Origin: Eubacteriales bacterium
GTDB taxonomy: Bacteria > Bacillota > Clostridia > Oscillospirales > CAG-382
Assembly (NCBI GenBank): GCA_045593165.1
Contig: JAZNWF010000035.1
Coordinates: 10,078 to 74,077, forward strand
Reading direction: 5' to 3'
DNA: 64,000 nucleotides
A model generated the notes under the pieces. That model saw nothing but the letters and a program-made list of their open reading frames with translations. It was not told the DNA's origin and made no database searches. Shown in pieces: positions 1 to 55,595 of this stretch (within the stretch, counting starts at the first letter, position 1; each line of letters starts with the position of its first letter). Position numbers and translations under genes: made by a program.

Positions 1-1653
1 CCGCTTTTCCAATACACCGATTGCCAGAACAGCGGCGAAACAAGCAATAAAATTTCTTCTTTTTATTCCGGAAAGGAAATTGGACCCGAATGGGACAGCG
101 GCAAAACCTGGAATCGAGAGCACGTTTGGCCCAACAGTAAAGGCGACCTTTCAGGCAACGGAGAAAACGATATTATGATGCTTCGCCCTACTGCAACAAG
201 CGAAAACGGAAGCAGAGGAAACAAAGCCTACGGCACTTCGTCATCTTATTATAATCCCAACAGTGAAAGCAACGGAAAACACGACCTGCGCGGCGACGTT
301 AGCCGTATAATACTGTACCAATACGTCCGTTGGGGCTGTATAAATACAGGTTCGAAATATAACCCTAACGATATTTTCGGCACGAAGGGCGTTATAGAAA
401 GTCTTGATATTTTGCTTTTGTGGATGGAGAAAGACCCCGTTGACACGTGGGAGCTCGGCAGAAACGATTCGGTCGAATCGATAACCGGCACCCGTAACGT
501 ATTCGTAGACTATCCCGAGCTTGCATTTGCTTTGTTTAACGAGCAGGTGCCCGATGAATACCAAACTCCTTCGGGAAGCGCCCTGAACAGCGGATATACC
601 GTTACCGCAAAGGCAAGCAACGATTCCTACGGAAGCGTTGAGGTAAAAGGAAACGTTATTATCGCCACCCCTTCCGCGGGATATATGATTTCGGGCTACA
701 AGGTTGTAAACGGCAAAGCAACCGTCACCAAAAAAGACAACACCTTCACCGTCAAATCGGATTCCGACGTAACGGTTGAAATTACTTTTGAAAAAGCACC
801 GCTCGTCACCTTAAGATTCAGCGAAAACGGAAGTGAAGCGGTTGCCGAAAGCTGTTACAAGGGTCAGACGATAACTCTCCCCAAGCATTCGGGAAACGTT
901 TACAGCGGATATTTGTTCCTTGGCTGGTCGGAGCAGGATGTACGCGAAGGCGATGATGCTCCTCAGTATTACAAAGCGGGAAGCTATTATACGGCAACCG
1001 AAGATGTTACCCTCAAAGCACTTTACGCTTATCAGAAGGACCACGGTCCGACAGTTTATTTTACCTCTTACGATAGCGGATGCAAGCATTCCGATGCATA
1101 CAGCACGGAAAAGACAGCGCCCACCTGCACCGAGGCAGGTCGTGAATCGGGCGAATTCTGCCCCACCTGCAACGCTTACGTAAGCGGCGGTAAAACGATC
1201 GATGCAACCGGGCACACCTATTCAAACGAATGCGACACGGTGTGCGACGTCTGCGGCGAGGATAACGACAACAAAATCAAGCACGATTTCAACAGCGACG
1301 GAATATGTAACGAATGCGGCGCAAGTCAATCCGAAGCAAGCAACGATGAAAGCGACACTTCAGAAAACGATACTTCCGAAAATGATACTTCCGAAAACGA
1401 TACTTCGGAAAGCGTTTCCTACGAAGATCCCGATGAATCCGAGAAAAGCGAATCGGTTGACAATTCATTCGGCTCGAGCCAAGATGAATCGATCGATATC
1501 CCGAACGATAGCTCGGCTGTAACAAGCGAAGCGACCGCAGATGATTCGGATTCCGAAACAAATTGGTGGATAATTGCGATAATAGCAGGCGGAATATTGA
1601 TTGCCGCAGTTATTATAGTAGTTAAATCAAAAAACAAAGCTAAATCGAAATAA
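1..1653 (+). CDS. Membrane-anchored extracellular endonuclease I (EndA/Bsn-like) with B-repeat-like and Cys/His modules; 5' end lies outside the window
   Basis: Frame is open from base 1 (PLFQYTDCQ...WNREHVWPNSKG), upstream of the listed ATG at 175. It continues with the endonuclease I motifs NGSRGNK, RGDVSRIILY, W..DPVD.WE..RN and RNVFVDYPE, then an acidic linker, a C-terminal TM helix and a basic tail. Confidence 0.85.
   Translation, partial: PLFQYTDCQNSGETSNKISSFYSGKEIGPEWDSGKTWNREHVWPNSKGDLSGNGENDIMMLRPTATSENGSRGNKAYGTSSSYYNPNSESNGKHDLRGDVSRIILYQYVRWGCINTGSKYNPNDIFGTKGVIESLDILLLWMEKDPVDTWELGRNDSVESITGTRNVFVDYPELAFALFNEQVPDEYQTPSGSALNSGYTVTAKASNDSYGSVEVKGNVIIATPSAGYMISGYKVVNGKATVTKKDNTFTVKSDSDVTVEITFEKAPLVTLRFSENGSEAVAESCYKGQTITLPKHSGNVYSGYLFLGWSEQDVREGDDAPQYYKAGSYYTATEDVTLKALYAYQKDHGPTVYFTSYDSGCKHSDAYSTEKTAPTCTEAGRESGEFCPTCNAYVSGGKTIDATGHTYSNECDTVCDVCGEDNDNKIKHDFNSDGICNECGASQSEASNDESDTSENDTSENDTSENDTSESVSYEDPDESEKSESVDNSFGSSQDESIDIPNDSSAVTSEATADDSDSETNWWIIAIIAGGILIAAVIIVVKSKNKAKSK
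1354..1411 (+). repeat. 15-bp coding tandem repeat (DTSEN x~4) in an acidic linker
   Basis: gacacttcagaaaac gatacttccgaaaat gatacttccgaaaac gatacttcggaaa. Confidence 0.85.
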
Positions 1654-1680
1654 ACGAAGCACGAAATAATAATTAATATT

Positions 1681-1715
1681 AAAAACTGCACTTCAAAACC
1701 GAAGTGCAGTTTTTT
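1681..1715 (+). terminator. Intrinsic terminator of the endonuclease gene
   Basis: aaaaactgcacttc-aaaacc-gaagtgcagtttttt. Confidence 0.8.
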
Positions 1716-1732
1716 GTTGCAGATATAAAAGG

Positions 1733-1763
1733 TGTGGCACACTTCGTTCGGAAGTGTGCCACA
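1733..1763 (-). terminator. Intrinsic terminator of the minus-strand operon
   Basis: tgtggcacacttc-gttcg-gaagtgtgccaca, followed by a T-rich tract on the minus strand. Confidence 0.75.
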
Positions 1764-1780
1764 ATAAACTATTGATTTAA

Positions 1781-4252
1781 TTATGCGCGGCTTCTGCCCT
1801 TAACGATGAATACAACTGCTGCTGCGGATACTGCCATGATAATAACCATTACCATAACGTTGGTTGCATCGCCGGGTTCGATAGGCTCGGGCACAGAGGT
1901 ATCGGATTCATCACCGCCGCCAAGATCGGGTTCTGCAGGAGTGTGCGAAACGATCCAAGCGTTCTTAACCTGTGCGTTGCCGTTGTACTGACCGATAACG
2001 CCGTAAACGGTTACGGTATCGCCTGCAACGGGCTTAACCTCCATAGCGTCGTAACGGTTTTCGCCGTCTGCGCTGTAGGTGCCGTAAACGGTGATAACGT
2101 TGCCGTCTTCATCGGTGAGGTACATATTACCGTACATATCGTTGTAAACCTCGGTAATAACGCCGGTTACGTAGTATTTGTTTTCGGTATAAGCGTTGTG
2201 AGTCTTGGATTCGCCAAGCGCGATAGCATCTTCGATGGAGAGGGTGCTGTCTGCTTCGGGATCTTCAACAACGGGATCGTCTTCGTGATCGCCTACGATG
2301 ATGTTGGTGATCCAAGCGTTCTTGAGCTGTGCATTACCGTTGTACTGACCAACTACGCCGTAAACGGTTACGGTATCGCCTGCGATAGGCTGAAGTTCCA
2401 TAGCGTCGTAACGAAGCTCGCCGTCTGCGCTGTAGGTACCGTAAATCGTGATAGTGTTGCCGTTTTCGTCGGTGATGTACATATTACCGTACTGGGTGTT
2501 GTATACGGAGGTAATAACACCGGTTACGTAGTATTTTTCTTCGGTGTAGGTGTTGTGTTCCTTGGAGGTGCCGAGTGCGATAGCTTCCTCGATGGTGAGA
2601 GTATCATCCGCATCATCTTCGCCGCCTTCATTTGCGGTAGCGGTAAGGAAAATATCAACTGCGTATTTAACATCGGAGCAGTTAGCAGAATATTCTTCGC
2701 CAACAAATTCGCCGCTGGGGCAAACGAAGGTTACGTTGCAAATGTCGCCAATGGTATAGCCGTCTGCAGCGTTGAATCTGACGTACATATCGTACACTAC
2801 GCCTGCTTCAAAAACGGTGTTCAGATCCAATTCAGCAAAGGTAGTGCCATCATACCAGATAACTACGTATTCAGCAATAGCCTCGATTGCGAGGTCGGTG
2901 CTGCCGTTAACGCTGTAAAGAGTTGCGGTGAAGGTCTGGTTGCCTTCTACGATAGCAACGTCAGCGCGCAATTCAACAGAAGAAATAACTGTATCAACAG
3001 GATCGTCAACGTCGGGTTCTTCGGGATCTGTAACAGCAGGAACGTGCTCGGTGATCCAAGCATTCTTGAGCTGTGCGGTGCCGTTGTACTGACCAATGAT
3101 ACCGTAAACGGTTACGGTGTCGCCTGCAACGGGCTTAACTTCCATAGCGTCGTAACGGGTAGAACCGTCTGCGCTGTAGGTGCCGTAAACAGTGATGATG
3201 TTGCCGTCCGCATCGGTAATCTTCATGTTACCGTACTGAGTATTGTAAACCTCGGTAATAACGCCGCTTACATAATACTTGTTCGCGGTATAGGTATTGT
3301 GTTCCTTGGATGCACCAAGTGCGAGAGCGTCTGCGATAGAAAGAACGCTGTCTGCTTCGGGATCGTTGTTTTCGGGTACTTCGGGTTCTTCGGGTTCGGT
3401 CGAGGGGATATGCTCGGTGATCCAAGCGTTCTTGAGCTGTGCTGTGCCGTTGTACTGACCGATGATACCGTAAACGGTTACGGTGTCGCCTGCAACGGGC
3501 TTAACCTCCATAGCGTCGTAACGGGTAGAGCCGTCTGCGCTGTAGGTGCCGTAAACGGTGATGATGTTGCCGTCTGCGTCGGTGATCTTCATATTACCGT
3601 ACTGAGTGTTGTAAACCTCGGTAATAACGCCGCTTACATAGTACTTGTTCGAGGTATAGGTGTTGTGTTCCTTGGATGCGCCGAGTGCGATAGCGTCTGC
3701 GATAGAAAGAACGCTGTCTGCTTCGGGATCGTTGTTTTCGGGTACTTCGGGCTCTTCGGGATCAACAGGAGCGGAAGAAGACGAAGTGTAAATTGTCATA
3801 GATGCTGCACGAGCCTGTGCGGTGGTGGTAAGAGAGAAGGAATCAACTGCTTCTGCAAAAACGATAGTTACAACCTTGCCGTCGATGGTTGCGGTTGCAT
3901 TCGAATCTTTGCAGGAATCTACCCAAGGGGTGATGTATTTATCCTGACTGCCGGTAGCATCGATAACGATCTTTGTCATTCCGGGATAGGAAATGGTAAC
4001 ATCAGAGCTCTTGTAAAAGCGACCGGGGTTTGCATAATCGCCTACGTTGCTGGTAGAAGCGCCCTTGTTGTTGGTAACGGTGATACCGTTCTGTTCCCAC
4101 ACCTGCTGTTCGGTGGAATAGGTGGTACGGTTTGCTTTATCAGCAAACGAAATTGTAGCCGTAGTTTCTGCGGATACGATAACTGCAAGCATCGATGCAA
4201 GCAGGCATACGCAAAATACCAATGAAGCTACTCTTTTGAGTTGGGTTTTCAT
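1781..4252 (-). CDS. Secreted, C-terminally anchored protein with four OB-fold (YhcR-like) repeats; putative nucleic-acid-binding surface protein
   Basis: Signal peptide; four copies of (S/T)I..A(I/L)A...YYV(S/T)GVIT.VYN..YGNM..TD..GN.IT(V/I)YG...GDTVTVYG..GQYNG.AQ.KNAWI; C-terminal EPGD + TM helix + KGRSRA, resembling a sorting signal. Confidence 0.75.
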   Translation of the reverse strand: MKTQLKRVASLVFCVCLLASMLAVIVSAETTATISFADKANRTTYSTEQQVWEQNGITVTNNKGASTSNVGDYANPGRFYKSSDVTISYPGMTKIVIDATGSQDKYITPWVDSCKDSNATATIDGKVVTIVFAEAVDSFSLTTTAQARAASMTIYTSSSSAPVDPEEPEVPENNDPEADSVLSIADAIALGASKEHNTYTSNKYYVSGVITEVYNTQYGNMKITDADGNIITVYGTYSADGSTRYDAMEVKPVAGDTVTVYGIIGQYNGTAQLKNAWITEHIPSTEPEEPEVPENNDPEADSVLSIADALALGASKEHNTYTANKYYVSGVITEVYNTQYGNMKITDADGNIITVYGTYSADGSTRYDAMEVKPVAGDTVTVYGIIGQYNGTAQLKNAWITEHVPAVTDPEEPDVDDPVDTVISSVELRADVAIVEGNQTFTATLYSVNGSTDLAIEAIAEYVVIWYDGTTFAELDLNTVFEAGVVYDMYVRFNAADGYTIGDICNVTFVCPSGEFVGEEYSANCSDVKYAVDIFLTATANEGGEDDADDTLTIEEAIALGTSKEHNTYTEEKYYVTGVITSVYNTQYGNMYITDENGNTITIYGTYSADGELRYDAMELQPIAGDTVTVYGVVGQYNGNAQLKNAWITNIIVGDHEDDPVVEDPEADSTLSIEDAIALGESKTHNAYTENKYYVTGVITEVYNDMYGNMYLTDEDGNVITVYGTYSADGENRYDAMEVKPVAGDTVTVYGVIGQYNGNAQVKNAWIVSHTPAEPDLGGGDESDTSVPEPIEPGDATNVMVMVIIMAVSAAAVVFIVKGRSRA
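3045..3760. repeat. Near-identical 366-bp intragenic tandem duplication (OB repeats 1 and 2)
   Basis: tgctcggtgatccaagc starts at 3045 and at 3411; the two ~122-aa units differ at only a few residues. Confidence 0.85.
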
Positions 4253-4273
4253 GGCGTGTTACTCCTTTTTTGA

Positions 4274-6109
4274 TTATTTTACAAAAGTACAACCTGAATC
4301 AAATTCTACCTCGCAGTCGCCCGAGCTGTGCTGGTAGTTCTTAATAGTACCGCTGACTGTGATAACGTCGCCTACCTTAAGAGCAGCGGCGCCTTCACCC
4401 TTCATACGGAAGCATTTAATAGGCTGATCTTCGCAGCCTTCGATTTCGATAATTACGGTAATGTTGCCGTACTGTTCGCTGTACGGAGTATCGATTTCGA
4501 TTATTTTACCGGTAAGAGTTGCTCTATAGGGAAGAGCTTCACCGGGAGCGAGCTCGAATGCCGCCTTTACGATTTCCTTGGGGTCGGAGGGTGCGGTAAC
4601 TACCGTGCCGCCGCCGGAAACACGCTTACGCATCGTGCAGCCTGCGCCCATTTCGACAGTGCCGTTATAGTTGATGATTCTGCCGGTAACGGTGATGGTG
4701 TCACCCTTGACCAAAAGCTCTACGTCGGTACCCTTCATACGATAAAGAAGAAGTTCCTTATCCGAGCCCTCTACGTCGATAATTACGCTGATGTTCTTAT
4801 AACCGGGATCGTAAGGTGTGGTTACCATAGTGACTACGCCCGTAAGAGTTACATCATATTCCATGGTGCCGTTCTCTTCGAGAGCGTAAGCGAAGTCCAT
4901 GATCTGTGCAGGGTCGGTAAGCTGAGTCGTAGGAGTTCCGCCGCCTGCTATACGATTTTCCAGCTTACAGCCGAAATCGAATTCAATTTCGCCGAAATAG
5001 TTCTTGATAGTACCTGTAACGGTAATCGTATCGCCCTTTGCGATTCTGTCGACGTCATCGCCGGTAAGACGGTAGCACTTGATGGGCTTTTTATCTCTGC
5101 CATCAACCACGATGGTAACGGTGATATTGCCAAACTCTTCATCGTACGCGTTGTCGATTACGGTTACTTTACCGGTAAGAGTTGCAATGTAAGGAAGCTT
5201 TTCGTCCTCTTCCAGCTCATACGCTTCATCAACGATTTCTTTTTGGGTCTTATCGGTGGTCGGAGTATCGGTGGGATCGTCCGAGGTTTCTGTATCGGAT
5301 TCATCGCCCGAAACGTCGGATTCATCACCCGAAACGTTGGATTCGTCACCGGATTCGTCGCCGGAGGATTCACCGCCTGCGCTTACAAGCTTATTAAGAG
5401 TTGCGCCTGCGTCGTATTCGATAGTGCCCTTGTAGTTGGTAAGCATACCGGTTACGGTAATGGTGTCGCCAACTGCGATTTTCTGAACGTCGTTACCGGT
5501 AAGGCGGTAGCATTTAATAGGCTTGTCATTGAAGTTTTCAACCACCATAGTAACGGTGATATTTTTATACTGCTCGCTGTACTCGGTATCGATCGAGGTA
5601 ACGACACCGGTGAGAGTATACGCCTGATCAAGCGAAGCTCCCTCTTCAAGAGCATACGCCATATTGATTATTTCCTCGGCGCTGGGACCGCTCGAAATGT
5701 TAAGACCTTCTACCACATATTTAAAGGAAGCGGTCACCTGACCCTTTTCATCCTTAATGGTAGCGGTTGCGGTAAAATAGATATCCTCGTCGGGAAGATC
5801 GGGAATATCGATCTTTACGTGGTTTGCGGTTTCGGAGGAAACGACCTTAACCGAGTCTGCTTCTCCTTCGGTAACCTTTACAGACCATTGGATCTGATAG
5901 CTGACGCCATCGATTGCAACTACGGATAAAACGTCCTTATCCATAAGCATGACCATAGCTTCATCCTTGTTGCCGGTCTGATACATATTGACAATATACG
6001 CCTTTGCGTTTTCAAGGTCGCTGCCCGATTCTTCGGTTTCGTCAGTACAGCCGACGAAGGCGCAAAGAAGCATCAGCAAACACAAGGAAAGAGAAATAAG
6101 CTTTTTCAC
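4274..6109 (-). CDS. Lipoprotein with four OB-fold repeats
   Basis: GTG start, lipobox FVG-C; four copies of A(Y/F).L......TLTG....(D/T)..Y....NI(T/S)V.......(C/L)(Y/F)R(L/M).G......GD.ITV(T/S)G...NY; SGDES low-complexity linker. Confidence 0.75.
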   Translation of the reverse strand: MKKLISLSLCLLMLLCAFVGCTDETEESGSDLENAKAYIVNMYQTGNKDEAMVMLMDKDVLSVVAIDGVSYQIQWSVKVTEGEADSVKVVSSETANHVKIDIPDLPDEDIYFTATATIKDEKGQVTASFKYVVEGLNISSGPSAEEIINMAYALEEGASLDQAYTLTGVVTSIDTEYSEQYKNITVTMVVENFNDKPIKCYRLTGNDVQKIAVGDTITVTGMLTNYKGTIEYDAGATLNKLVSAGGESSGDESGDESNVSGDESDVSGDESDTETSDDPTDTPTTDKTQKEIVDEAYELEEDEKLPYIATLTGKVTVIDNAYDEEFGNITVTIVVDGRDKKPIKCYRLTGDDVDRIAKGDTITVTGTIKNYFGEIEFDFGCKLENRIAGGGTPTTQLTDPAQIMDFAYALEENGTMEYDVTLTGVVTMVTTPYDPGYKNISVIIDVEGSDKELLLYRMKGTDVELLVKGDTITVTGRIINYNGTVEMGAGCTMRKRVSGGGTVVTAPSDPKEIVKAAFELAPGEALPYRATLTGKIIEIDTPYSEQYGNITVIIEIEGCEDQPIKCFRMKGEGAAALKVGDVITVSGTIKNYQHSSGDCEVEFDSGCTFVK

Positions 6110-6209
6110 GGTTTTATTCCTTTCTTTATTTAAAATATATACGAATATTTTGACGATGCAGTAACGAAAATCGGCTATTAAAAAGCTGATTTAAGCTTTA
6201 ATGCTTCGA

Positions 6210-7562
6210 CTAATATACAGTAATATCCTTTGCGGTAAACACCTTTATCTGATATTCGCCGCTGAAATAATCTACGATGCCCGTAACGTCGATAGTTTTA
6301 TCGAGGAAATCGGATTCTATCAACATTTCACCGTTTTCATTATAAAGAACGATAGTGCGCACGTCTACGGTATAGCCGTCAACCTCGCAGGTAAGTGTCA
6401 TCGCGCCGTCGGAATCTCCGCCGTTGTGAGTAGTATATACGTCAACGACCTTGAGGTTTTTCATGCTTATCGAGGTGCTTAATGCAAGAAATGCGTAATC
6501 AAAGGTCTTGCTTACGGTTTCCTCGCTGTCGATTGCGGAAAGCACTTCGACATCGACCTTGCCGTTTACGAGCTTTTCGGCAGAGGTTTCGAGGTTTGCC
6601 GCCGAATGTCCGTCACTCAGCTTGATCGTGTTCCCCGGATCCTCGGGCTTGAATTCGCGGTAGGAAAGGCCCGACACCTGCCAGGTTCCGCCGGTTTCAT
6701 AATAGGTAACAGTACCAACCACGCGAACCATATTACCAACCGAGAGAATATTGAGCAGCTCGCCCGTTTCGTATCCGTAATAAACCGAAACACCGTAATA
6801 CATATCGGTTGCGGCGTCGTAGCTTTCTACGTATACGGAGTTATTGTTGTTGCGGGTTACCACTCCTTCGAAAGCAACCTTTGTGTTTTCATAGAGCTCG
6901 ATATTGGTACGAAGTCCCTTAAGGTCGATCTCATACGCATCGCCGTAATAGAAATCCGGATCCTTTTCGCCCGAGAAAACGTGAAGCTTCTGTGCCTTTG
7001 CCTGCTGGAACGCCTTGGATGCCTGCTCGCCGTAAAGGTCGGCGGTAGTGCCGCAGGAGATAGACAAGCCGTTCTGGATAAGCTCGAGGTTGAGGCAACG
7101 GTAATCGTCACTGCCCGCAGGCTTATACCAAACCCAAACAAGATGTCTGCCGCCGGTCGAATCGACGTTCCAATTCGCATTGTCGGATTCTACAATAATA
7201 GAAGTAGCAGAAAGCAGCTTTTCCTTGGTAAAGGAGGATGCTTTTTTGCCCCATTCTTCGATCTTGCCGGTAGATTCGGGAGTATTTACGCCCATATAGC
7301 GCGCTTTAAGAATTCCATCGGGACTAATCGAGGTAGGAACGAAAAAGTGAGTGGTGTCACCGTCGATATAGCTTTTTACGGTAACCTCCTGCTTTGCCGT
7401 GCCCGATTGTAAATTAAGCTTGGTACCCGAAACGTAATCGACGATCACCAACGAGGTTTCGGAGGATTCGTTTTCGCCGCCTTGGCAACCTGCAAAGCAG
7501 GTCACCAGAAGGCAGACGATGATAAATAACGGTAAAAATCTTTTAATGCTATTCATACTCAT
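6210..7562 (-). CDS. Thermonuclease (staphylococcal nuclease family) lipoprotein with C-terminal OB-fold domains
   Basis: Lipobox FAG-C; SNase motifs IDGDT, RYMGVNTPE, GRHLVWV and LNLELIQNGL; ATG at 7562 overlaps the upstream stop (TGATG), alternative ATG at 7556. Confidence 0.85.
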   Translation of the reverse strand: MSMNSIKRFLPLFIIVCLLVTCFAGCQGGENESSETSLVIVDYVSGTKLNLQSGTAKQEVTVKSYIDGDTTHFFVPTSISPDGILKARYMGVNTPESTGKIEEWGKKASSFTKEKLLSATSIIVESDNANWNVDSTGGRHLVWVWYKPAGSDDYRCLNLELIQNGLSISCGTTADLYGEQASKAFQQAKAQKLHVFSGEKDPDFYYGDAYEIDLKGLRTNIELYENTKVAFEGVVTRNNNNSVYVESYDAATDMYYGVSVYYGYETGELLNILSVGNMVRVVGTVTYYETGGTWQVSGLSYREFKPEDPGNTIKLSDGHSAANLETSAEKLVNGKVDVEVLSAIDSEETVSKTFDYAFLALSTSISMKNLKVVDVYTTHNGGDSDGAMTLTCEVDGYTVDVRTIVLYNENGEMLIESDFLDKTIDVTGIVDYFSGEYQIKVFTAKDITVY

Positions 7563-8983: not shown

Positions 8984-9031
8984 AGCGTTTTGATCCTTTC
9001 GGTTTTTTATTTTTATTTTATTTTTTACTTA

Positions 9032-9934
9032 TTAACCCTTTATGCCGCTTCGGCTGACGCCCGACATAATGTATTTACGCAAGCAGAGGAACACGAGGAA
9101 CAGAGGAGCGGAAACGATCGCAACCGCCGCCATCTGAACGGGGTAATTCGCCTGACCCGACGTATCGGTAAAGGCGTTACGCAAGCCGTTCGTGATCATC
9201 TGGTGTGCATCGTCGTTTGCGACGAGTTTGGGCCAGATATACGAGTTCCACGCGCCCATCATCTTTAATATCGTAACCGAAATAAGAGTCGGAAGCGCAA
9301 GCGGTATCATAACCTTCCAAAGATATTTCAGATCCGACGTGCCGTCGACCTTGGCGGCAAGATAGAGCTCGTTGGGAATCTGCATAAAGTTCTGACGCAG
9401 GAGATAGACATAAAATATACTTACCAAAAACGGGACTATAAGTGCAGTAAAGGTGTGCATCCAGCCCAATCTGTTGATGGTAATATAGTTCGTAATGGTG
9501 AAAAGCTCACCGGGAATCATCATGGTTGCAAGCAACGCGCCGAACAGGGTTTCCTTTCCCTTGAATTCAAGACGCGCAAACGCAAAGGCGGAAAGCACCG
9601 TGATAACAAGGCTCAATATAGTCGAAACAAGACCTACGTAAAGGGTATTGAGGAACAAATCACCCAAATTCGCGGTGGTGAACGCTTCGGCATAGTTGGA
9701 AAACATCATCTGACGAGGCCAGAAGGTAGGCACTGCCTGACGGTATTCCGAAAGAGTTTTTAACGACGAAATGATCATCCAATAAAACGGAAACAGAACT
9801 GCCAACGCCATAGCGAGCAAAAAGATATACGTAAGCGTTTTAGAGATGATTTTTCTGACAGTCTGAGAAGCAGAGGTTTTTTGAATGTCCCGTTCATGCA
9901 TAACGGCAATATTATTCTTAGACATAAGCGGCAC
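9032..9934 (-). CDS. ABC transporter permease (MalG/UgpE-like)
   Basis: LFPFYWMIISSLK; EAA loop IPNELYLAAKVDG; WNSYIWP. Confidence 0.92.
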   Translation of the reverse strand: MPLMSKNNIAVMHERDIQKTSASQTVRKIISKTLTYIFLLAMALAVLFPFYWMIISSLKTLSEYRQAVPTFWPRQMMFSNYAEAFTTANLGDLFLNTLYVGLVSTILSLVITVLSAFAFARLEFKGKETLFGALLATMMIPGELFTITNYITINRLGWMHTFTALIVPFLVSIFYVYLLRQNFMQIPNELYLAAKVDGTSDLKYLWKVMIPLALPTLISVTILKMMGAWNSYIWPKLVANDDAHQMITNGLRNAFTDTSGQANYPVQMAAVAIVSAPLFLVFLCLRKYIMSGVSRSGIKG

Positions 9935-9937
9935 CTC

Positions 9938-10876
9938 TTAATAATGGACGTGTTTTTTGATCACCTTGTTGTTTATCAACGTTACAACAAGAATGATCGC
10001 AAACAGGATCAACGCCGCGGCACTGGCGCGTCCCTGACGGTCGCGCTCCAATGCATCGTAAACGAATCCGACCATTGTGTTAAGTCTGCCCGCGTCGTCG
10101 GCGGGACCCATTTTTTCACCGAATATACCGATGATACTCGAATATTCCTTGAAGCCGCCGATGAAGCCCGTGATTATTACGTATGCAAGCATCGGAGAAA
10201 GCAAGGGAATGGTTATACGGGTAAGTACTCTGCGTTTGGGAGTTCCGTCGACCTTGGCGGCATCGTAATACTGCTTGTTGATGCTTTGAAGACCGCCCAA
10301 CAGAATAAGTATCTTAAAGGGGAGGGCGTTCCAGACGATATAGATGATCATAACCGCCATATTCGCCATATAGGTCGAGCCCGCATTGATCCAGTTTATC
10401 GGTTCGCCGCCGAAAAACTGAATTACGTTGTTGATTATACCCCAGGTATCAGCCACGTTGCTTCCCTGCTTAAGACCTACGATATTGAACATCGCGGCGA
10501 AAACCATACCGATAGCAATAGAGTTTGTAACGTACGGCAGGAAGAATATGGTCTGAAGAGTTTTTTGCAGAGGCTTGATAGAATTAAGCGCAACCGCAAT
10601 AAGCAACGCAAGCGTTGTCGATATAGGAACGGTCGTAACACACAGAATGACCGTGTTTTTTAAGCACTGCAGAAATTCTTTATATTCAATAACCTTAAGG
10701 AAGTTTTCGATACCGAACTCAAACGTCGCGCCGCCGATAGCTGCCATATCGCCGTAACCGTTCAACAACGCCATACGTAATGTGTTGAAGATAGGCCATA
10801 CGGTAAACACGAGCAACAACACTATCGCAGGCGAAAGGTACAACCAAGCCTTCCATTGTTGTCTGTTATCTACCAT
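9938..10876 (-). CDS. ABC transporter permease (MalF/UgpA-like)
   Basis: TIFFLPY; EAA loop LGGLQSINKQYYDAAKVDG; ITIPLLSP. Confidence 0.92.
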   Translation of the reverse strand: MVDNRQQWKAWLYLSPAIVLLLVFTVWPIFNTLRMALLNGYGDMAAIGGATFEFGIENFLKVIEYKEFLQCLKNTVILCVTTVPISTTLALLIAVALNSIKPLQKTLQTIFFLPYVTNSIAIGMVFAAMFNIVGLKQGSNVADTWGIINNVIQFFGGEPINWINAGSTYMANMAVMIIYIVWNALPFKILILLGGLQSINKQYYDAAKVDGTPKRRVLTRITIPLLSPMLAYVIITGFIGGFKEYSSIIGIFGEKMGPADDAGRLNTMVGFVYDALERDRQGRASAAALILFAIILVVTLINNKVIKKHVHY

Positions 10877-10877
10877 T

Positions 10878-11981
10878 TCACTTCACCTCAAAGTAAATAC
10901 GCTCTTCGGTTTCCTTGTTGAAGAGGAAGAATTTATGGGGCTTGATGCTGTATTTAACGGTTTCCGCCGAGGTATCAACGCATATATCGGAGCTGATGAT
11001 CGCGCGGATAACGGGGCTTACAGCCGCCTCGTGAGTAGAAACGACGCTCGCATCACGTCCCATTACCTCGACGTTGGAGAGCTTACATTCGAAGGTTCCT
11101 TCGGGATCCGGTTCGATTCCTTCGGGACGGATACCGATATAAACGTCCTGATCCTCAACGCCCGAAATACTCATTACCGCTTCGTCGCCGATATAAACCT
11201 TACCATCCTGAACCTTGCCCTCGAGCACGTTGATGGGAGGAGTTCCCAAAAACTTCGCAACAAACAGATTCGTGGGATTATCGTAAACCTCCTGCGGCTT
11301 GCCTATCTGCTGAACCACGCCAAGCTTCATTACCACGATAACGTCGGAGATAGACATTGCTTCCTCCTGGTCGTGAGTAACGAACACGGTGGTGATGCCG
11401 GTTTCCTTCTGAATACGGCGGATTTCCTCACGGGTCTGCAAGCGCAATCTTGCATCGAGATTGGAAAGCGGCTCATCAAGCAAAAGCACTCTGGGCATTT
11501 TTACAAGCGCACGTGCAATTGCAACACGCTGCTGCTGACCGCCGGAAAGCTCGCTGGGCTTACGGCCCATAAGCTCATCGATCTGAACCAATTTCGCCGC
11601 CTCGTAAGCGCGTTCGAGCATTTCCTGCTTCGAAAGCTTGTCCTTGCCTGTGAGATTTTGCAACGGGAACATAATATTTTGCTGCACCGTCATATGAGGA
11701 TACAACGCATAGTTCTGGAAAACAAGGCCTATACCTCTGTTTTCGGTTGAAAGCTCGGTAACATCATCATCGCCGAAATAGATCTTACCGCTCGTGGGCT
11801 TTTGCAAGCCGCTTATCATATACAAGGTGGTACTTTTTCCGCATCCGGACGGTCCGAGAAGTCCGACAAGCTGACCGTCGGGAATTTCAAAAGTGAAATC
11901 GTTTACGGCTATTACCTCATCCCCCGACTTTTTATCGCGGCTGGGAAAAATTTTCGTTAGATGCTCTAACACAACCTTCAT
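10878..11981 (-). CDS. ABC transporter ATP-binding protein (MalK/UgpC-like)
   Basis: GPSGCGKS, FQNYALYPHM, LSGGQQQRVA, LLDEPLSNLD, VTHDQ. Confidence 0.95.
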   Translation of the reverse strand: MKVVLEHLTKIFPSRDKKSGDEVIAVNDFTFEIPDGQLVGLLGPSGCGKSTTLYMISGLQKPTSGKIYFGDDDVTELSTENRGIGLVFQNYALYPHMTVQQNIMFPLQNLTGKDKLSKQEMLERAYEAAKLVQIDELMGRKPSELSGGQQQRVAIARALVKMPRVLLLDEPLSNLDARLRLQTREEIRRIQKETGITTVFVTHDQEEAMSISDVIVVMKLGVVQQIGKPQEVYDNPTNLFVAKFLGTPPINVLEGKVQDGKVYIGDEAVMSISGVEDQDVYIGIRPEGIEPDPEGTFECKLSNVEVMGRDASVVSTHEAAVSPVIRAIISSDICVDTSAETVKYSIKPHKFFLFNKETEERIYFEVK

Positions 11982-12022
11982 AGTAGTTCCCTCTTTTATA
12001 GTTAGATTTATTTTTTATACTT

Positions 12023-12781
12023 TTAAAGCTCGCGAGACACCTTTTCGGCGTGGCGCGCTTTTTTGTACTCTATAAGCTGTTCACGGTTATCGAAAATACG
12101 TTGGCTTGCAAAATCCACTGCCACCGTACCTGCCAGAACGTCGTGCAGTAAGCCGTAGGTATGCGAGGTGACAAAGCAGATGATCTGAACCACGGCGTAA
12201 ATAAGCATTACCGCCAGACCCGTAATACCGATGGTGTTAAAGAAGATCATAATTACGATGCTCAACGGAATCATCAGCTCAAGCGCAAATTTTCCGAGCA
12301 CAGCGCGCACGAACAGCTGCAGGTTGCTTACCTTTATGCCCTCGTTATGCATAACGCCGATGCCGAATATCTTTTTACCCAACGTCTGACCGTTCTTCAG
12401 GAAAATCGGAACGAAAAATTCAACGACCAGAACTCCGAAGAGAACACCGAAAACCGTAATGATGAGCGAAAGATTTATCAGCATATTGTAGACGTAGATA
12501 ACGTCTTTATCTTCGGATATTGCCTTGGAGGCGGCATCGTAATTCTGCCTTTGCCCGTCGTCCAACGCGTTGTATTCCTCTTGCGTTATATCAAGTGTAA
12601 TACCGTATTCGGATTCATAGCTTTGATAAGAGGAATCAAGTCGCTCCATATATCCGTCATAGCCAAGCACCGAGGAAAGTATCGTTGCCACGGCGACGGC
12701 AATAATGCTTAACAATATTCCGTCAAAGATGGCGGCAATTATTCTTTTTCCTATGCTTGCTTTTTGCAGATCTGTATTCAT
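12023..12781 (-). CDS. RDD family membrane protein
   Basis: ASIGKRIIAAIFD...GQTLGKKIFGI...R...LHDVLAGT signature. Confidence 0.85.
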   Translation of the reverse strand: MNTDLQKASIGKRIIAAIFDGILLSIIAVAVATILSSVLGYDGYMERLDSSYQSYESEYGITLDITQEEYNALDDGQRQNYDAASKAISEDKDVIYVYNMLINLSLIITVFGVLFGVLVVEFFVPIFLKNGQTLGKKIFGIGVMHNEGIKVSNLQLFVRAVLGKFALELMIPLSIVIMIFFNTIGITGLAVMLIYAVVQIICFVTSHTYGLLHDVLAGTVAVDFASQRIFDNREQLIEYKKARHAEKVSREL

Positions 12782-12799
12782 TTCGGAAATGCTCCTTGA

Positions 12800-13912
12800 T
12801 CATACGCCCAATCGGCAGCGAATTTCTTCGACAGCCCGTTTGCAGTCTTCATACTTCACGGTATAATCACACACTTGGGCATTACGCGCCTCGGCGTGAA
12901 TGGCAAGCAATCGATTTGCCTTATCCTCGGTCGTGCAATCCTTATTGAGTATTGCGGTGATCAGTTCCTTTTTATCACGCTTGACGTAGACGGTGATAAC
13001 GTGCGGAAATTGAGTTTTGAGCGCCATGGCACCGCAAATGTCCATTACGGTGATCACGCTTTTGCCGTCCGCCAATATTTTTTCGACGTCCGATTTGCGA
13101 GAGCCGTAGGAATGATAAGCATAGGTCGTCGTTTCAAACAGCTGATTACTGTCCGCCATAGCTCTGAATTCTTCGTCGGTAACATAATGATACCAGCCGT
13201 CTCCGCGCGCAAGTGCCGAAGGGTCGGTCGTATAGCCGACAAGCTTTTCAAAGGAAGGCACCTGCTCCAACAGCTCGCGTGCGATATCGTTTTTACCGCT
13301 TCCCGAGGGGCCTACGAGCACCACGATTCCCGGCTTATCAAGCGTTTGACATTCGCGGTTAACGCTGTAACCGTTTGCAATGATTTCAACAAGCTTTAAA
13401 AATTCATCGTAATTATTTACCGAAAGTATCCCCGTCGCCTCCTGATTCCACGGGCGACGCATAAGAATGGGATATGCCGCGTTGGAATTAAGAACGTTGT
13501 GCATTCCGTCATCGAAGAGAATATCAACGTCGATCATATCCTTGCGCGAGCCCATAAGTATATGGTCCTTGGGAATTTCGGGAAATTCTTGAAGTATACG
13601 CTGAAAGCGCAACGTCATATATTCGGGCCATACCGCAGTAGTTACGAAGATCTCGGTCATTTGCGAAAGCTTCTTTACAAATTCACGTGCACCCTTGATG
13701 ACCGGCTGGTTAACAAAAAAATCGGGCTCGTCCATACATTCGAAAATAACGTCGGCACGGGTTCCTGTTTTTCCCCAACGGTTTACCTCGTGAATGGAAA
13801 GCGGCGGATCGAATTTATATTTTTCGTTTGCCAAGCGGATGGCATACGGTATACATTCAAGCAGAAGATCATCCACGTCCAAGGCGGTGGAAAGACGAAA
13901 GCTTCTGTTCAT
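12800..13912 (-). CDS. Fusion of a HAD 5'(3')-deoxyribonucleotidase (NT5C-like) and a guanylate-kinase-like domain
   Basis: N-terminal LDVDD, FVTTA, K...DILFDDGMHN, RRPWN; C-terminal VLVGPSGSGK, YTT, YHYV, YGS. Confidence 0.8.
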   Translation of the reverse strand: MNRSFRLSTALDVDDLLLECIPYAIRLANEKYKFDPPLSIHEVNRWGKTGTRADVIFECMDEPDFFVNQPVIKGAREFVKKLSQMTEIFVTTAVWPEYMTLRFQRILQEFPEIPKDHILMGSRKDMIDVDILFDDGMHNVLNSNAAYPILMRRPWNQEATGILSVNNYDEFLKLVEIIANGYSVNRECQTLDKPGIVVLVGPSGSGKNDIARELLEQVPSFEKLVGYTTDPSALARGDGWYHYVTDEEFRAMADSNQLFETTTYAYHSYGSRKSDVEKILADGKSVITVMDICGAMALKTQFPHVITVYVKRDKKELITAILNKDCTTEDKANRLLAIHAEARNAQVCDYTVKYEDCKRAVEEIRCRLGV

Positions 13913-14045
13913 AAAATCTCTCTTTTCTGTTTTAAGGTAAAATTTCCCTACCTTAATTTATATTCTATTATATAATAACATATTTATATACAAAAAGGCA
14001 AGATTTTTTACGAAAAAAGTCACATTTTTGCCAAAAATAAAGCTC

Positions 14046-14074
14046 TTGATATTGCCGCGCCGCGATGATATAAT
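14046..14074 (+). promoter_or_regulatory. sigmaA-type promoter of the 5'-nucleotidase
   Basis: TTGATA-N17-TATAAT with extended -10 TG. Confidence 0.7.
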
Positions 14075-14114
14075 TTCTACGTACATACAATACGGCATAT
14101 AAAGGGTGAACGGC

Positions 14115-16544
14115 GTGAAATTTCTCAAAAAAAGCATCGCGTTTATTTTAATATTAATAATATCGGCTTCCGCCTGCGCATGCGGCTCGGAGCCCTGCTC
14201 TGCGCATACCGACGCAAATACCGACGGCATCTGCGACGCATGCAGTCAAAAGGCGTTTGCCTATATAGACGTATACTCGATAAGCGACATTACCGCAGAT
14301 CAGCCCATAAGTAAGCTCGAAAATTATATCCGTCAGGTCGGAGGCAACGAAAACACGCTTATATTGTCTACGGGAAATATGTGGCTTGACGGTGAAGAAA
14401 GAATCGCGTGGATGGACGGTCTCGGCTTTGACGCCATGGCAGTTGGAGACTGCGAGCTTTCAAAGGGGTTAAACGCGCTCGAAAGCGACGCAAAAGGTGC
14501 AAAACACCCGTTGCTTGCCATAAACGTTTATGACCGAAGCACCAAAACCCACGCCGATTTCTGCAAGCCCTCGGTAATATTGGAGCGTGACGGAGCAAGA
14601 ATAGGAATCATCGGAGCGGTCGCGGCGGAAACGAGCGAGGATTTTTATATCCGTACCGGCAACGATCTCACGTCCTTGGTAAAAGCGGAATCGGAACGAT
14701 TGCGCAATGAAGAAAACGCAGACATTATCATCTATCTGCTTCACGACGGATACGGCCGAAGCGATACCGCGTTTTTGCAAAAGGTTTCCGACGGCCAGAT
14801 AAAATCTTATTACGACATTTCCCTTTCCGAAGGCTACGTTGATATCGTTTTCGAGGGCAAAACGGGCAAGGCATACCGTCTTGAAGACCGACACGGAATA
14901 TATCACCTGCAAAACGCAGGCGGCATTTCCTACGCCTCGATAGCCGTAAATATCGCCGATAACAATGCTACAATCAGCTCTACCAAGCTCATTTCCTCGG
15001 ACGCGGAATTGCCGCCCGAAAATCCCGAGATCGAAAGCACTCCCGATATAGAAAGCTCGCTTGACACAAGCGACAACGACAGCAACAGCGATAACGATAA
15101 CAACGTTTGCGGCAAGCACACCGACAAAAACAGCGATACAGTTTGTGACGTTTGCGACGAATCGGTTATAGTTTATTTCGATTTTTACACAATAAACGAT
15201 CTTCACGGCAAGTTGGCAGATTCCGACAGCCATGTCGGTGTTGACGAGCTGTCCACGTTCCTTAAAAACGCACGCAAGACCGATCAAAACGCGATCTTCC
15301 TTTCGGCAGGCGATATGTGGCAGGGCTCCTCGGAATCCAATATGACAAAGGGGCTTATTATCACCGATTGGATGAACGAGCTCGATTTCACAGCGATGAC
15401 GCTCGGCAACCACGAATACGATTGGGGCTCGGAATATATCGGCAACAACGAAAAGCTTGCCGAATTCCCGTTCCTTGCCATAAATGTTTACGAGCGCGCC
15501 ACCAATAAGCTCGCGCCATACTGTCAGCCGTCGGTAACCGTGGAGGCGGACGGCCTGCAAATAGGAATCATCGGCGCGATGGGCGATTGCTATTCCTCGA
15601 TAGCAACAGACAAATCCGACGACGTGTATTTCAAGGTCGGTGCACAGCTTACCGCGTTGGTAAAGGAAGAATCCGAGCGTTTGCGCGGCGAGGGTGTGGA
15701 TTTTATCGTATACGTTATCCACGACGGCTACGGAAGCTCGCATTACGGATACACAAAGCAGGTTTCCTCTTCTCAGATTTCGGGCTATTACGATATTTCC
15801 CTCTCCGACGGATATATCGACCTTGTTTTCGAGGGACATACGCATCAGGGCTATTTACTGCAGGACGAGCACGGAGTGTACCACCTGCAAAACCGCGGCG
15901 ACAACAAGGGCGGAATATCACACGCGGAGGTTGCGATAAACTCGGTCACCAACAGCGCCGAGGTCGAGGTCGCGGAATTGATAAGCACCTCTGCATATTC
16001 GGGGCTTGCCGACGACCCTGTCGTTAAAAAGCTTCTCGAAAAATACGACGAGCTTATTTCTCCCGCCAACAAGGTGTTGGGATACAACAAAACCTACCGC
16101 AACAGCAATTATCTGTGTCAGCTGGTGGCTGACCTGTATTACGACGCCGGTGTCGAAAAATGGGGCGATGAATACGATATAGTGCTCGGAGGCGGATACC
16201 TTTCCACCCGAAGCCCTTATAATCTGTATTCAGGCGAGATCATGTACTCCGATCTGCAATCGCTGTTCCCGTTTGATAACCAATTGGCGCTGTGCTCAAT
16301 AAAGGGCAGTTATCTGAAATCGAAATTCTTTGAAACGAATAACAACGATTATTTTATCTGCTACGACGAATACGGAAGCAGTATCAAAAACAGTATCAAC
16401 GCCAACGCAACCTATTACGTTGTTGTTGACACTTATACCGCCTATTACGCTCCGAACCGACTCACCGTGATCGAGCTTTACGACGAAACCACCTTTGCCC
16501 GTGATCTGCTCGCAGATCACGTAGAAGCAGGCGGCTTGTCGTAG
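14115..16544 (+). CDS. Surface 5'-nucleotidase/bifunctional metallophosphatase lipoprotein with a duplicated N-terminal domain
   Basis: Likely GTG start at 14115 after aaagggtga; signal peptide with Cys; intact NDLHG, AGD, GNHEYD and GHTH motifs in the second domain; C-terminal 5'-nucleotidase domain (LFPFDN). Confidence 0.85.
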   Translation: MKFLKKSIAFILILIISASACACGSEPCSAHTDANTDGICDACSQKAFAYIDVYSISDITADQPISKLENYIRQVGGNENTLILSTGNMWLDGEERIAWMDGLGFDAMAVGDCELSKGLNALESDAKGAKHPLLAINVYDRSTKTHADFCKPSVILERDGARIGIIGAVAAETSEDFYIRTGNDLTSLVKAESERLRNEENADIIIYLLHDGYGRSDTAFLQKVSDGQIKSYYDISLSEGYVDIVFEGKTGKAYRLEDRHGIYHLQNAGGISYASIAVNIADNNATISSTKLISSDAELPPENPEIESTPDIESSLDTSDNDSNSDNDNNVCGKHTDKNSDTVCDVCDESVIVYFDFYTINDLHGKLADSDSHVGVDELSTFLKNARKTDQNAIFLSAGDMWQGSSESNMTKGLIITDWMNELDFTAMTLGNHEYDWGSEYIGNNEKLAEFPFLAINVYERATNKLAPYCQPSVTVEADGLQIGIIGAMGDCYSSIATDKSDDVYFKVGAQLTALVKEESERLRGEGVDFIVYVIHDGYGSSHYGYTKQVSSSQISGYYDISLSDGYIDLVFEGHTHQGYLLQDEHGVYHLQNRGDNKGGISHAEVAINSVTNSAEVEVAELISTSAYSGLADDPVVKKLLEKYDELISPANKVLGYNKTYRNSNYLCQLVADLYYDAGVEKWGDEYDIVLGGGYLSTRSPYNLYSGEIMYSDLQSLFPFDNQLALCSIKGSYLKSKFFETNNNDYFICYDEYGSSIKNSINANATYYVVVDTYTAYYAPNRLTVIELYDETTFARDLLADHVEAGGLS

Positions 16545-17204: not shown

Positions 17205-17240
17205 AACGCCCGAAGCGTGTGCTTCGGGCGTTTTATCTTT
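17205..17240. terminator. Intrinsic terminator between convergent genes
   Basis: aacgcccgaagc-gtgt-gcttcgggcgtt followed by a T tract. Confidence 0.75.
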
Positions 17241-55575: not shown

Positions 55576-55595
55576 CTCAACGGAAAGGAATTATT

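Follow-up and report, generated by a model that had tools for sequence, protein, structure and literature searches.

The window analyzed here, a stretch of 64,000 nucleotides from a clostridial genome (Eubacteriales bacterium, contig JAZNWF010000035.1), begins with eleven contiguous genes which very probably serve the use of extracellular nucleic acid. They code for surface nucleases, surface proteins composed of OB folds, nucleotidases, an ATP-binding cassette (ABC) importer and an RDD-family membrane protein. By comparison with related genomes we could show that the gene of the substrate-binding protein (SBP) of this importer is paired with the gene of a staphylococcal-nuclease-type (SNase) lipoprotein, and that the SBP is related to a dinucleotide-binding protein of Thermus thermophilus. 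Judging from the genes present, their topology signals, the conserved gene order and the affinities of the SBP, we suggest, with somewhat more confidence than doubt, that the locus feeds its host on nucleic acid by importing short phosphorylated products. As to the cargo taken by itself, we give even chances to its being phosphorylated rather than a nucleoside.

The domains and topology which the original prediction had assigned to all eleven genes were borne out when 13 window proteins and 11 open reading frames (ORFs) to the left of the window were scanned against Pfam and the topology was called by a simple hydropathy and lipobox scan. Both surface nucleases carry export signals, one with an Endonuclease_1 and the other with an SNase domain; Pfam OB folds are present in both tandem-OB surface proteins (OB-823 and OB-611); and the two nucleotidases are a surface protein with Metallophos and 5_nucleotid_C domains and a signal-less fusion of NT5C and Guanylate_kin domains. 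The four-gene importer and the RDD gene likewise lie where they had been placed (Table 1). Nine of the genes form a tightly packed minus-strand unit from 13912 to 1781 in the order NT5C–kinase, RDD, ATPase, permease 1, permease 2, SBP, SNase, OB-611, OB-823, with intergenic gaps of 18, 41, 1, 3, 48, -4, 100, and 21 nt and, as had been described, a terminator hairpin at the end.

The conservation of this arrangement was followed from the SNase gene. A search with the SNase profile, with one genome per species, gave at least 591 matching stretches, of which the best 80 were retained, each with flanks of up to 10 kb. According to their sequence-record labels these loci come from gut and rumen metagenome-assembled genomes (MAGs), mostly of Oscillospiraceae, Acutalibacteraceae, and other Clostridia, with a minority of few Lachnospiraceae, one 'Mollicutes bacterium' and three Spirochaetales, and by the same labels the nuclease-linked gene order is kept across three phyla. 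Twenty locus proteins were compared with the 80 loci by tblastn, which gives the raw counts in Table 1, many of the contigs being short; the collinearity counts are limited to loci whose sequence reaches far enough on the side concerned, and require the same strand and order. The co-occurrence that had been predicted for other genomes was confirmed, as a collinear core is present in all loci with adequate sequence (SBP gene 73/73) and the OB-repeat gene follows in 65/69. In the window 4 nt are common to the SBP and SNase genes; in the related loci the distance from the SBP stop to the SNase start has a median of 8 nt and is at most 30 nt in 75/79. At the other end of the core the RDD gene stands directly upstream of the ATPase gene in 62/62 loci. 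Blind clustering of the 1018 ORFs of the 80 loci revealed no further common partner. The rarer neighbours found in this way are nucleotide enzymes, namely a PHP protein (13 loci) with best matches, below cut-off, to 3′,5′-nucleoside bisphosphate phosphatase and RNase RNM, a thymidine kinase (6 loci), and a 5′–3′ exonuclease (3 loci). In 5 loci there is a Big_2 protein whose ribonuclease match is weak and below threshold, and in 4 an HD dGTPase-like phosphohydrolase.

These counts bear on the reading implied by automated annotation, an ordinary sugar ABC transporter among unrelated genes. As the original prediction had anticipated, sources do name the SBP a 'multiple sugar transport system substrate-binding protein'; its Pfam family includes many sugar binders, and a giant GH94 gene lies 700 nt past the nucleotidase gene. 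However, in the blind clustering of the 80 related loci each glycoside hydrolase family was confined to 3 loci at most, the ORF which intervenes between the nucleotidase and GH94 genes has a relative in 0/80 of them (tblastn, in which the GH94 gene itself was not a query), and the nuclease-linked gene order is kept across three phyla according to the record labels. We consider a sugar transporter scarcely credible.

Starting from the SBP instead of the nuclease, 41 related genomes contained two close orthologues (67% and 57% identity), and both are accompanied by the full set of genes, whereas none of 12 paralogous transporters, whose SBPs share ∼30% identity, is accompanied by nuclease, OB, RDD, or NT5C genes. 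The trait is patchy: among the high-quality genomes sampled, it is present in 21 of 396 for the order and in 3 of 13 for the genus. A paralogous ATPase–permease–permease–SBP unit with a ∼30% identical SBP is carried by most congeners (L015 and L018–L026; for example, L020:3007–11034 and L021:9456–18834). In L020 and L021 this unit adjoins genes for a CotH–LTD protein, a VTC-domain protein and DUF4956, and in one of them a type I phosphodiesterase. None of the 41 genomes has both the paralogous and the SNase-linked unit. A homologue of the GH94 protein adjoins the paralogous transporter in L021, so that the two transporter types may share a chromosomal neighbourhood.

The pairing of SBP and SNase extends beyond Clostridia. 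In a second sample of 300 genomes, taken from the class that holds the 'Mollicutes'-labelled MAG, the SNase profile matched at E 1e-8 or better in 177 genomes, and in 30/30 of the best loci an SBP homologue (26–54% identity) is encoded directly upstream of the SNase on the same strand. Nine of these loci were extended. In five of them (L139–L143) one strand run comprises the genes for ATPase, permease, permease, SBP, SNase, a large surface protein, a second SNase, and two DHH proteins; thus, in part of the range the NrnA-like DHH pair belongs to the SBP–SNase operon itself. The large surface protein has aBig_2 and, in 3/5, a lamin-tail (LTD) domain. A Na/Pi cotransporter–PhoU gene comes next in three of the five runs, together with the LTD protein in L141 and L142 and by itself in L143. 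RDD genes upstream of the ATPase gene were found in two other distant loci, L144 and L147. The tblastn results for this class are identical under genetic codes 11 and 4, hence no match relies on TGA being read as Trp, as in true mycoplasma. Taken together, the adjacency spans Clostridia, Bacilli (including the 'Mollicutes'-labelled MAG) and some Spirochaetes, and the 30/30 pairing and the extended distant loci indicate that the SBP–SNase pair is old and widespread. In some small genomes of this class (0.8–1.1 Mb; L144–L146) the SNase gene is preceded by a tandem pair of SBP genes, and in one of them a 641-aa fused double ATPase is encoded as well.

On its contig (C35, 74.5 kb) the window begins at base 10078, and the locus reaches ∼8 kb further left. 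There a plus-strand run (locus L027, C35 3313–9719) comprises deoC, deoD, deoB, cdd, udp, two genes for DHH–DHHA1 proteins, surE and, as the last gene, endonuclease I; an XRE-type regulator gene is also encoded on the plus strand within the 10 kb left of the window. The endonuclease I gene is split by the window edge, and the complete gene codes for 663 aa (PF04231, E 2.6e-19). DeoC, DeoD, DeoB, Cdd, Udp, and SurE score above the NCBIfam cut-offs, whereas the two DHH proteins reach 234 and 228 bits with the model of the NrnA oligoribonuclease/pAp-phosphatase and do not attain its cut-off of 350. No signal peptide was found by the hydropathy and lipobox scan in the DHH, SurE, NT5C–kinase and deo proteins. 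The two operons are convergent on the terminators between them. Combined they would provide surface binders and cutters, an importer, cytoplasmic trimming enzymes, and, judged from the sequences, a complete set for nucleoside and deoxyribose catabolism.

The importer might give a hint what is taken up. The best NCBIfam matches of SBP, permease 2, permease 1, and ATPase are UgpB, UgpE, UgpA, and UgpC, but the equivalog cut-offs are not attained in any case (55 bits vs. 411, 102 vs. 297, 66 vs. 335, and 349 vs. 432, respectively). Compared as a single sequence with the chains of the PDB, the SBP matches 7c0f and its mutants at E 4e-18, UgpB at 9e-11, and other proteins, mostly sugar-binding, at 5e-7 or weaker. 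A family profile built from 50 members gives 1.6e-24 (89 bits) for 7c0f and 8.4e-16 (60 bits) for UgpB, followed by 5.5e-13 (51 bits or less for the others), which places 7c0f ∼29 bits above UgpB. The AlphaFold2 (AF2) model of the SBP (pLDDT 92) also has its best structural match in the 7C0F entries, with Z 37.4 and a root-mean-square deviation of 3.2–3.3 over 378–379 residues. According to the title of this entry 7C0F is the dinucleotide-binding protein of an ABC transporter with endogenously bound uridylyl-3′-5′-phospho-guanosine. The residues named in the titles of the Thermus mutants could be placed on the SBP: Y56, F79, N81, and S127 align to W86 (Tyr in the family consensus), Y109, D111, and S176, and Y224, T240, Y246, and Q274 align to L283, S298, Y304/H, and Q338, the alignment being uncertain around 279–284. 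Of these eight ligand residues three are identical, four conservative and one not conserved, as far as the partly uncertain HMMER alignments go; six of the eight positions are invariant in 50 relatives of the SBP, the exceptions being W86 and Y304. The N-terminus of the SBP moreover weakly resembles the P68 lipoprotein family (E 2e-6), the only hint of a relation to the mycoplasma proteins discussed below. In published work the Thermus protein is grouped with UgpB in a phosphate-ester branch of CUT1 (PMC12718374). Thus, we assign the SBP by its sequence to the Ugp/dinucleotide-binding branch of CUT1, and not to a sugar-like one.

The same matches could be taken to mean that the locus mainly scavenges phosphate, with an importer for glycerophosphodiesters or similar esters and nucleases that only free phosphate. 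UgpB, UgpE, UgpA, and UgpC are indeed the best-named matches, a Na/Pi cotransporter–PhoU gene follows the operon in 3/9 extended distant loci, and YhcR, NucA, and NucB of Bacillus subtilis reclaim extracellular DNA (eDNA) for phosphate (PMC11458576). On the contrary, all four proteins stay under the Ugp cut-offs, the SBP profile prefers the dinucleotide binder to UgpB by the margin given above, and the strict SBP–SNase pairing and the deo genes would be unexplained by the uptake of glycerophosphodiesters. We regard this reading as improbable.

A more serious question is whether the same feeding locus imports nucleosides or bases after dephosphorylation outside the cell, with the DHH, SurE, and NT5C proteins serving general nucleotide turnover. 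The UshA/CpdB-type lipoprotein is encoded within the locus, and genes for nucleoside phosphorylases as well as cdd, deoB, and deoC are next door. Nevertheless, only 25/80 loci have the nucleotidase gene, in contrast to the constant core, the relatives of the SBP are phosphodiester binders and not sugar binders, and two DHH genes stand in the importer strand run in 5/9 extended distant loci. Moreover, the first gene of the operon codes for the nucleotidase–kinase fusion, whose substrate must be a nucleotide. Known nucleoside ABC importers use binding proteins of the BmpA/PnrA type, which is another family. Nucleoside import is the published reading for comparable loci of Izemoplasmatales, in line with the general view that nucleotides are dephosphorylated before uptake (PMC8289736). 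On balance we think it unlikely, but much less so than phosphate scavenging. That the cargo would instead be phosphorylated is suggested, in our view, by the affinity of the SBP, by the nucleotide-requiring first product of the operon and by cytoplasmic enzymes suited to short oligonucleotides and 3′- or 5′-phosphates, namely the two NrnA-like proteins, SurE, NT5C, and in some loci the PHP enzyme.

Several points weigh against the import of short phosphorylated products. The sequence identity of the SBP to the Thermus protein is only 21–22%, the ligand residue Y224 of the latter aligns to Leu, and the fold comparison gives Z 37.4 for the Thermus protein, 37.0 for UgpB of M. tuberculosis and 35.4 for maltose-binding protein, so that the fold score alone does not discriminate the ligand class. 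The test from the SBP side is small (2/2 vs. 0/12), and as the 80 loci were all picked via the SNase, they do not tell how often this SBP clade occurs without a nuclease. In Clostridia the NrnA and SurE genes belong to a separate, convergent operon which lies within 10 kb in only 37/80 loci. Both NrnA and SurE double as housekeeping enzymes. The surface nucleotidase fits the textbook route of outside dephosphorylation followed by nucleoside import, and with it the nucleoside cargo stays a serious rival. Finally, the authors who described the Izemoplasmatales loci read the ABC transporters there as nucleoside and nucleobase carriers (PMC8289736).

The surface proteins would carry out the first steps. 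The endonuclease I protein has a signal peptide, an InlB B-repeat-like domain, an acidic linker and a C-terminal membrane anchor; OB-823 has an N-terminal signal peptide and a C-terminal membrane anchor; and lipoboxes are present in OB-611, the SNase, the SBP, and the 5′-nucleotidase. OB-823 and OB-611 each consist of four copies of one 104-aa module of helix and OB fold. A hidden Markov model (HMM) of the module matches OB-823 four times at E 1e-37 to 2e-39 and OB-611 at E 3e-40 to 5e-46, and the copy number among relatives is 1–7. The nearest Atlas clusters of OB-611 are OB-fold proteins of Bacillota. From these sequence features we propose that OB-823 and OB-611 are nucleic-acid catchers. 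Bacteroidota proteins which join BACON domains with tRNA_anti-codon OB folds reach 0.80–0.81 against OB-611 in the Atlas, a possible lead to nucleic-acid-binding surface proteins in Sus-like loci.

The SNase protein comprises a staphylococcal-nuclease domain (∼55–200), an OB fold (∼229–298) and a second beta domain (∼336–450). Its AF2 model (pLDDT 92.1) has staphylococcal nuclease as the top Foldseek matches (E ∼1e-9, TMt ∼0.8); the match list is full of staphylococcal nuclease variants, thus the comparison concerns the N-terminal domain alone. Residues 229–298 have the OB strand order in the model, and residues 205–310 match the OB module in hhalign with a probability of 92% and E 6e-7. The module HMM finds no match at E 1e-3 in the SNase, endonuclease I, and nucleotidase proteins, and the SNase C-terminus is linked to the module by profile–profile comparison only. 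D68, D70, T71, R89, T95, P96, E97, and R140 are invariant in 45 relatives, and the residues which we take to be catalytic and metal-binding in staphylococcal nuclease fall on these invariant columns. Enzymes of the endonuclease I family leave 5′-phosphate ends and those of the SNase family 3′-phosphate ends; the latter holds for the YhcR-type SNase (PMC4714964). In the 812-aa nucleotidase an intact metallophosphatase and 5′-nucleotidase C domain occupies residues ∼355–745. Its N-terminal half (window 14106–15100), as read from the sequence, is a metallophosphatase duplicate without the metal-binding motifs; the duplicate is also seen in tblastn, and a homologue in L013 (517 aa) has only the intact half. 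The best NCBIfam matches of the 812-aa protein, below cut-off, are families of 2′,3′-cyclic phosphodiesterase, 3′-nucleotidase, and 5′-nucleotidase.

A surface nuclease system might also be not mainly nutritional and serve the remodelling of eDNA in biofilms, the escape from host DNA traps or the control of incoming DNA. Surface nucleases of the SNase type are used in this way in streptococci and mycoplasmas (PMC4118848, PMC9740415). Such a role would leave the obligatory importer, the cytoplasmic trimming enzymes and the deo genes unexplained, and we judge it very improbable.

Inside the cell, the fusion encoded by the first gene of the minus-strand operon combines a nucleotidase of the 5′(3′)-deoxyribonucleotidase type with a guanylate-kinase-like P-loop kinase and has no export signal; its HAD DxD motif (D12, D14) and its Walker A motif (G201–K207) are invariant in 21 relatives. 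With the left operon included, the following pathway can be proposed. Outside, the two membrane-tethered proteins of 104-aa OB modules would hold DNA or RNA at the surface, where the anchored endonuclease I and the OB-bearing SNase lipoprotein would cut it to very short pieces and the UshA/CpdB-type lipoprotein would strip part of the phosphate. The Ugp-like ABC importer would take up dinucleotides or short oligonucleotides, pNp, or nucleoside monophosphates; of all the steps, it is above all this substrate that we infer, as we do the binding by the OB modules and the products of cleavage. In the cytoplasm the two NrnA-like DHH enzymes may trim the pieces to mononucleotides, and SurE and the NT5C domain may dephosphorylate these, part of them being salvaged by the fused kinase domain. 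Udp, DeoD, Cdd, DeoB, and DeoC would then turn the nucleosides to bases, acetaldehyde, and glyceraldehyde-3-phosphate.

The original prediction had described a pathway of capture, cutting, import, and salvage. Gene content and co-occurrence agree with it, but not with salvage as the sole end, as the adjacent deo genes point equally to catabolism. In addition, a link to the loss of de novo synthesis had been suggested for checking, which was not supported. All three carriers tested (G000, G008, and G011), and also the non-carrier G010, have PurM, a PurH-type protein, PyrB, and PyrF; this test covered four marker families in five genomes, the window genome being 73.6% complete and the two other carriers 97%. 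As the carriers keep these purine and pyrimidine markers, the locus would serve feeding and not the rescue of an auxotrophy, and together with the deo genes the markers suggest catabolic use and opportunistic salvage. In the non-carrier G021, which is of the same genus and 97% complete, none of the four markers had a match and neither had the SNase-linked locus; this genome is possibly a nucleotide auxotroph that would feed by another route.

The features of the locus are collected in Table 1. In the divergent promoter region the best sigma-70-like site is 14046–14074 (+), TTGATA-17-TATAAT with TG, and a weaker one lies on the minus strand at 14001–13972. A 12-mer, TCATCGCGGCGC, is found, as such and as its complement, upstream of deoC (C35 3134) and in the -35/-10 spacer of the nucleotidase promoter (window 14057–14068); it has 3 copies in the 1.7-Mb genome, 2 of them at the locus. 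Considered as a shared operator it was not conserved, as its core 10-mer occurs only once among the related loci L028–L108, and the operator idea remains a weak lead. Plus-strand open frames at 1943–4225 (760 aa) and 4328–5929 (533 aa) run antisense to the OB-repeat genes, and comparable frames are found in related loci (clusters 7 and 11 of the ORF clustering); they look like a by-product of composition and were taken as spurious. To the right of the locus, a 185-aa ORF (orf185, 16642–17199, plus strand) matches no family, and tblastn against the 80 related loci gave no relative of it; a strong terminator (17205–17232) stands behind it. Next comes a 2351-aa protein (17242–24297, minus strand) with GH94, glucoamylase-like, and DUF3131 domains, which resembles cyclic beta-1,2-glucan synthase. 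A 535-aa protein (55410–57017, plus strand) has a weak cohesin-domain match, and the remaining window genes are housekeeping genes: murB, whiA, dnaE, a class A PBP, and polA.

Table 1. Features of the locus, with positions in the window, and occurrence of their homologues in the 80 related loci.
Feature	Position	Strand	Assignment and remarks	Raw count	Collinear
Endonuclease I gene (3′ part in window)	1..1653	+	Pfam PF04231, E 8e-18 for the window part	6/80	
Two hairpin terminators	1681..1763	.	127-nt gap between convergent endonuclease I and OB-823 genes; hairpin 1714–1681 with 15 pairs, hairpin 1763–1733 with 13 pairs, T-rich tail after each		
823-aa OB surface protein (OB-823)	1781..4252	-	Pfam tRNA_anti-codon, tRNA_anti_2	31/80	
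611-aa OB lipoprotein (OB-611)	4274..6109	-	Pfam PF01336, E 7.7e-10; lipobox FVGC	71/80	65/69 (after SNase gene)
451-aa SNase lipoprotein	6210..7565	-	Pfam SNase, E 1.5e-9		
473-aa SBP lipoprotein	7562..8983	-	Pfam SBP_bac_8/SBP_bac_1	79/80	73/73
Permease 2 (UgpE-like)	9032..9934	-	Pfam BPD_transp_1	73/80	69/69
Permease 1 (UgpA-like)	9938..10876	-	Pfam BPD_transp_1	69/80	68/68
ABC ATPase, MalK/CysA-type C-terminal domain (UgpC-like)	10878..11981	-	Pfam ABC_tran	69/80	62/62
RDD-family membrane protein	12023..12781	-	Pfam PF06271; ∼5 hydrophobic segments	62/80	62/62
NT5C + guanylate-kinase-like fusion	12800..13912	-	Pfam NT5C 1.3e-16, Guanylate_kin 8e-21	32/80	32/60
Divergent promoter region, operon vs. 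5′-nucleotidase gene	13913..14105	.	Predicted sigma-70-like sites		
812-aa UshA/CpdB-type nucleotidase lipoprotein	14106..16544	+	Pfam Metallophos, 5_nucleotid_C	25/80	
DHH1, DHH2, SurE (left of window)		+		37/80 each	
DeoC, Udp (left of window)		+		9/80 each	
DeoB, Cdd (left of window)		+		7/80 each	
XRE-type regulator (left of window)		+		1/80	

Nucleic acid is plentiful in the contents of gut and rumen, and the uptake route of anaerobic Firmicutes is poorly defined. As the cassette is annotated as a sugar transporter together with hypothetical proteins, metabolic models miss it. If our proposal is true, the view that nucleotides need dephosphorylation before uptake would have to be revised. 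We hold it for possible, though with slightly less than even confidence, that a large and unnamed family of Ugp-like ABC importers carries phosphorylated di- or oligonucleotides across the membrane. In that case many bacteria of gut and rumen would consume nucleic acid in the form of short phosphorylated pieces, without the prior stripping to nucleosides which textbooks assume, and the RDD and tandem OB-module proteins could be counted as new accessories of such a system. Should the claim of a phosphorylated cargo fail, the locus is still a good marker of DNA and RNA foraging in metagenomes.

The nearest published counterparts are the putative 'DNA-degradation loci' of Izemoplasmatales (Wasmund et al. 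2021), which were likened to polysaccharide utilization loci (PULs). In them several secreted nucleases are encoded together with 3′–5′ nucleases, phosphohydrolases, an LTD-bearing protein, phosphate transporters, and an ABC transporter, and homologues of the SBP of the latter are likewise found beside nucleases in other places (PMC8289736). The clostridial locus shares with them two or more surface or secreted nucleases (here endonuclease I and the SNase lipoprotein, both with export signals), an ABC transporter whose SBP relatives neighbour nucleases (here 73/73 and 30/30, and 2/2 in reverse), and additional exonucleases and phosphohydrolases (here two DHH proteins, SurE, NT5C–kinase, and the surface nucleotidase). 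Compared by description, tandem OB-module proteins replace the LTD protein, the RDD protein and the NT5C–kinase fusion are found here, and the hosts are from gut and rumen, unlike those of the Izemoplasmatales loci. The Pfam scans of the window and the upstream 10 kb detected neither a phosphate transporter nor a large LTD-bearing protein. The distant loci L139–L143 look similar to the Izemoplasmatales loci, with an LTD-bearing large protein in 3/5 and the Na/Pi transporter in 3.

In mycoplasmas the transporters encoded with SNase lipoprotein genes (M. agalactiae MAG_5030 to MAG_5070, M. hyopneumoniae mhp379) have been postulated to import nucleic-acid precursors (PMC3585158, PMC9740415). The likeness is one of gene arrangement: there too an SBP lipoprotein gene is directly upstream of the SNase lipoprotein gene, and one ATPase and two 'sugar'-type permeases, the same parts as here, are cotranscribed with the pair. 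However, the transporter genes follow the pair in mycoplasma, whereas they precede it in the clostridial locus (PMC3585158), and the descriptions consulted mention no OB-repeat, RDD, DHH, or deo partners. Our proposal, if true, would name a substrate for this long-postulated 'nucleotide' ABC transporter. It would also give a physiological context to the dinucleotide-binding protein of T. thermophilus (PDB 7C0F), the best match of the SBP by sequence and structure; the clostridial SBP is a lipoprotein and ∼70 residues longer. UgpBAEC, the importer of glycerol-3-phosphate and glycerophosphodiesters, is the best-named family for all four parts and has the same fold, but the clostridial parts are below the family cut-offs and their context is nucleases, not glycerophosphodiesterases.

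YhcR of B. subtilis is a single sortase-anchored polypeptide which unites OB, SNase, and nucleotidase domains, whereas in the clostridial locus SNase with OB, OB repeats, and nucleotidase are separate genes and are tied to an importer. YhcR is a surface-bound, Ca-dependent, non-specific nuclease which reclaims eDNA as a nutrient (PMC11458576) and releases 3′-phosphorylated nucleotides, alongside the surface phosphodiesterase/nucleotidase YfkN (PMC11458576, PMC4714964). Vibrio cholerae uses eDNA by two nucleases of different end chemistry, Xds and Dns, together with UshA/CpdB nucleotidases (PMC4714964). Unlike the clostridial locus, this route, as described there, is periplasmic and phosphate-focused and has scattered genes and no linked dedicated importer.

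With the PULs of Bacteroidota there is a common logic, as one locus provides for binding and cutting at the surface, for import and for breakdown in the cytoplasm. The Pfam scans of the 13 window proteins and 11 upstream ORFs gave no match to SusC or SusD families, and the likeness is one of analogy rather than membership, with an ABC system of the Gram-positive type and a different polymer. The original prediction of a PUL-like locus for nucleic acid is supported by the co-occurrence of the genes, but the idea had already been published (PMC8289736), and the concept itself is thus known from Izemoplasmatales and mycoplasmas. Among the papers listed by our searches on ABC importers tied to nucleases, oligonucleotides, or nanoRNases, we found neither such a cassette of Clostridia nor an oligonucleotide cargo. 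New compared with the known systems are the clostridial form with tandem OB-module proteins, RDD protein, and NT5C–kinase fusion, the breadth of the SBP–SNase pairing, and the relation to the dinucleotide-binding protein, by which a cargo that is both specific and unconventional becomes open to testing.

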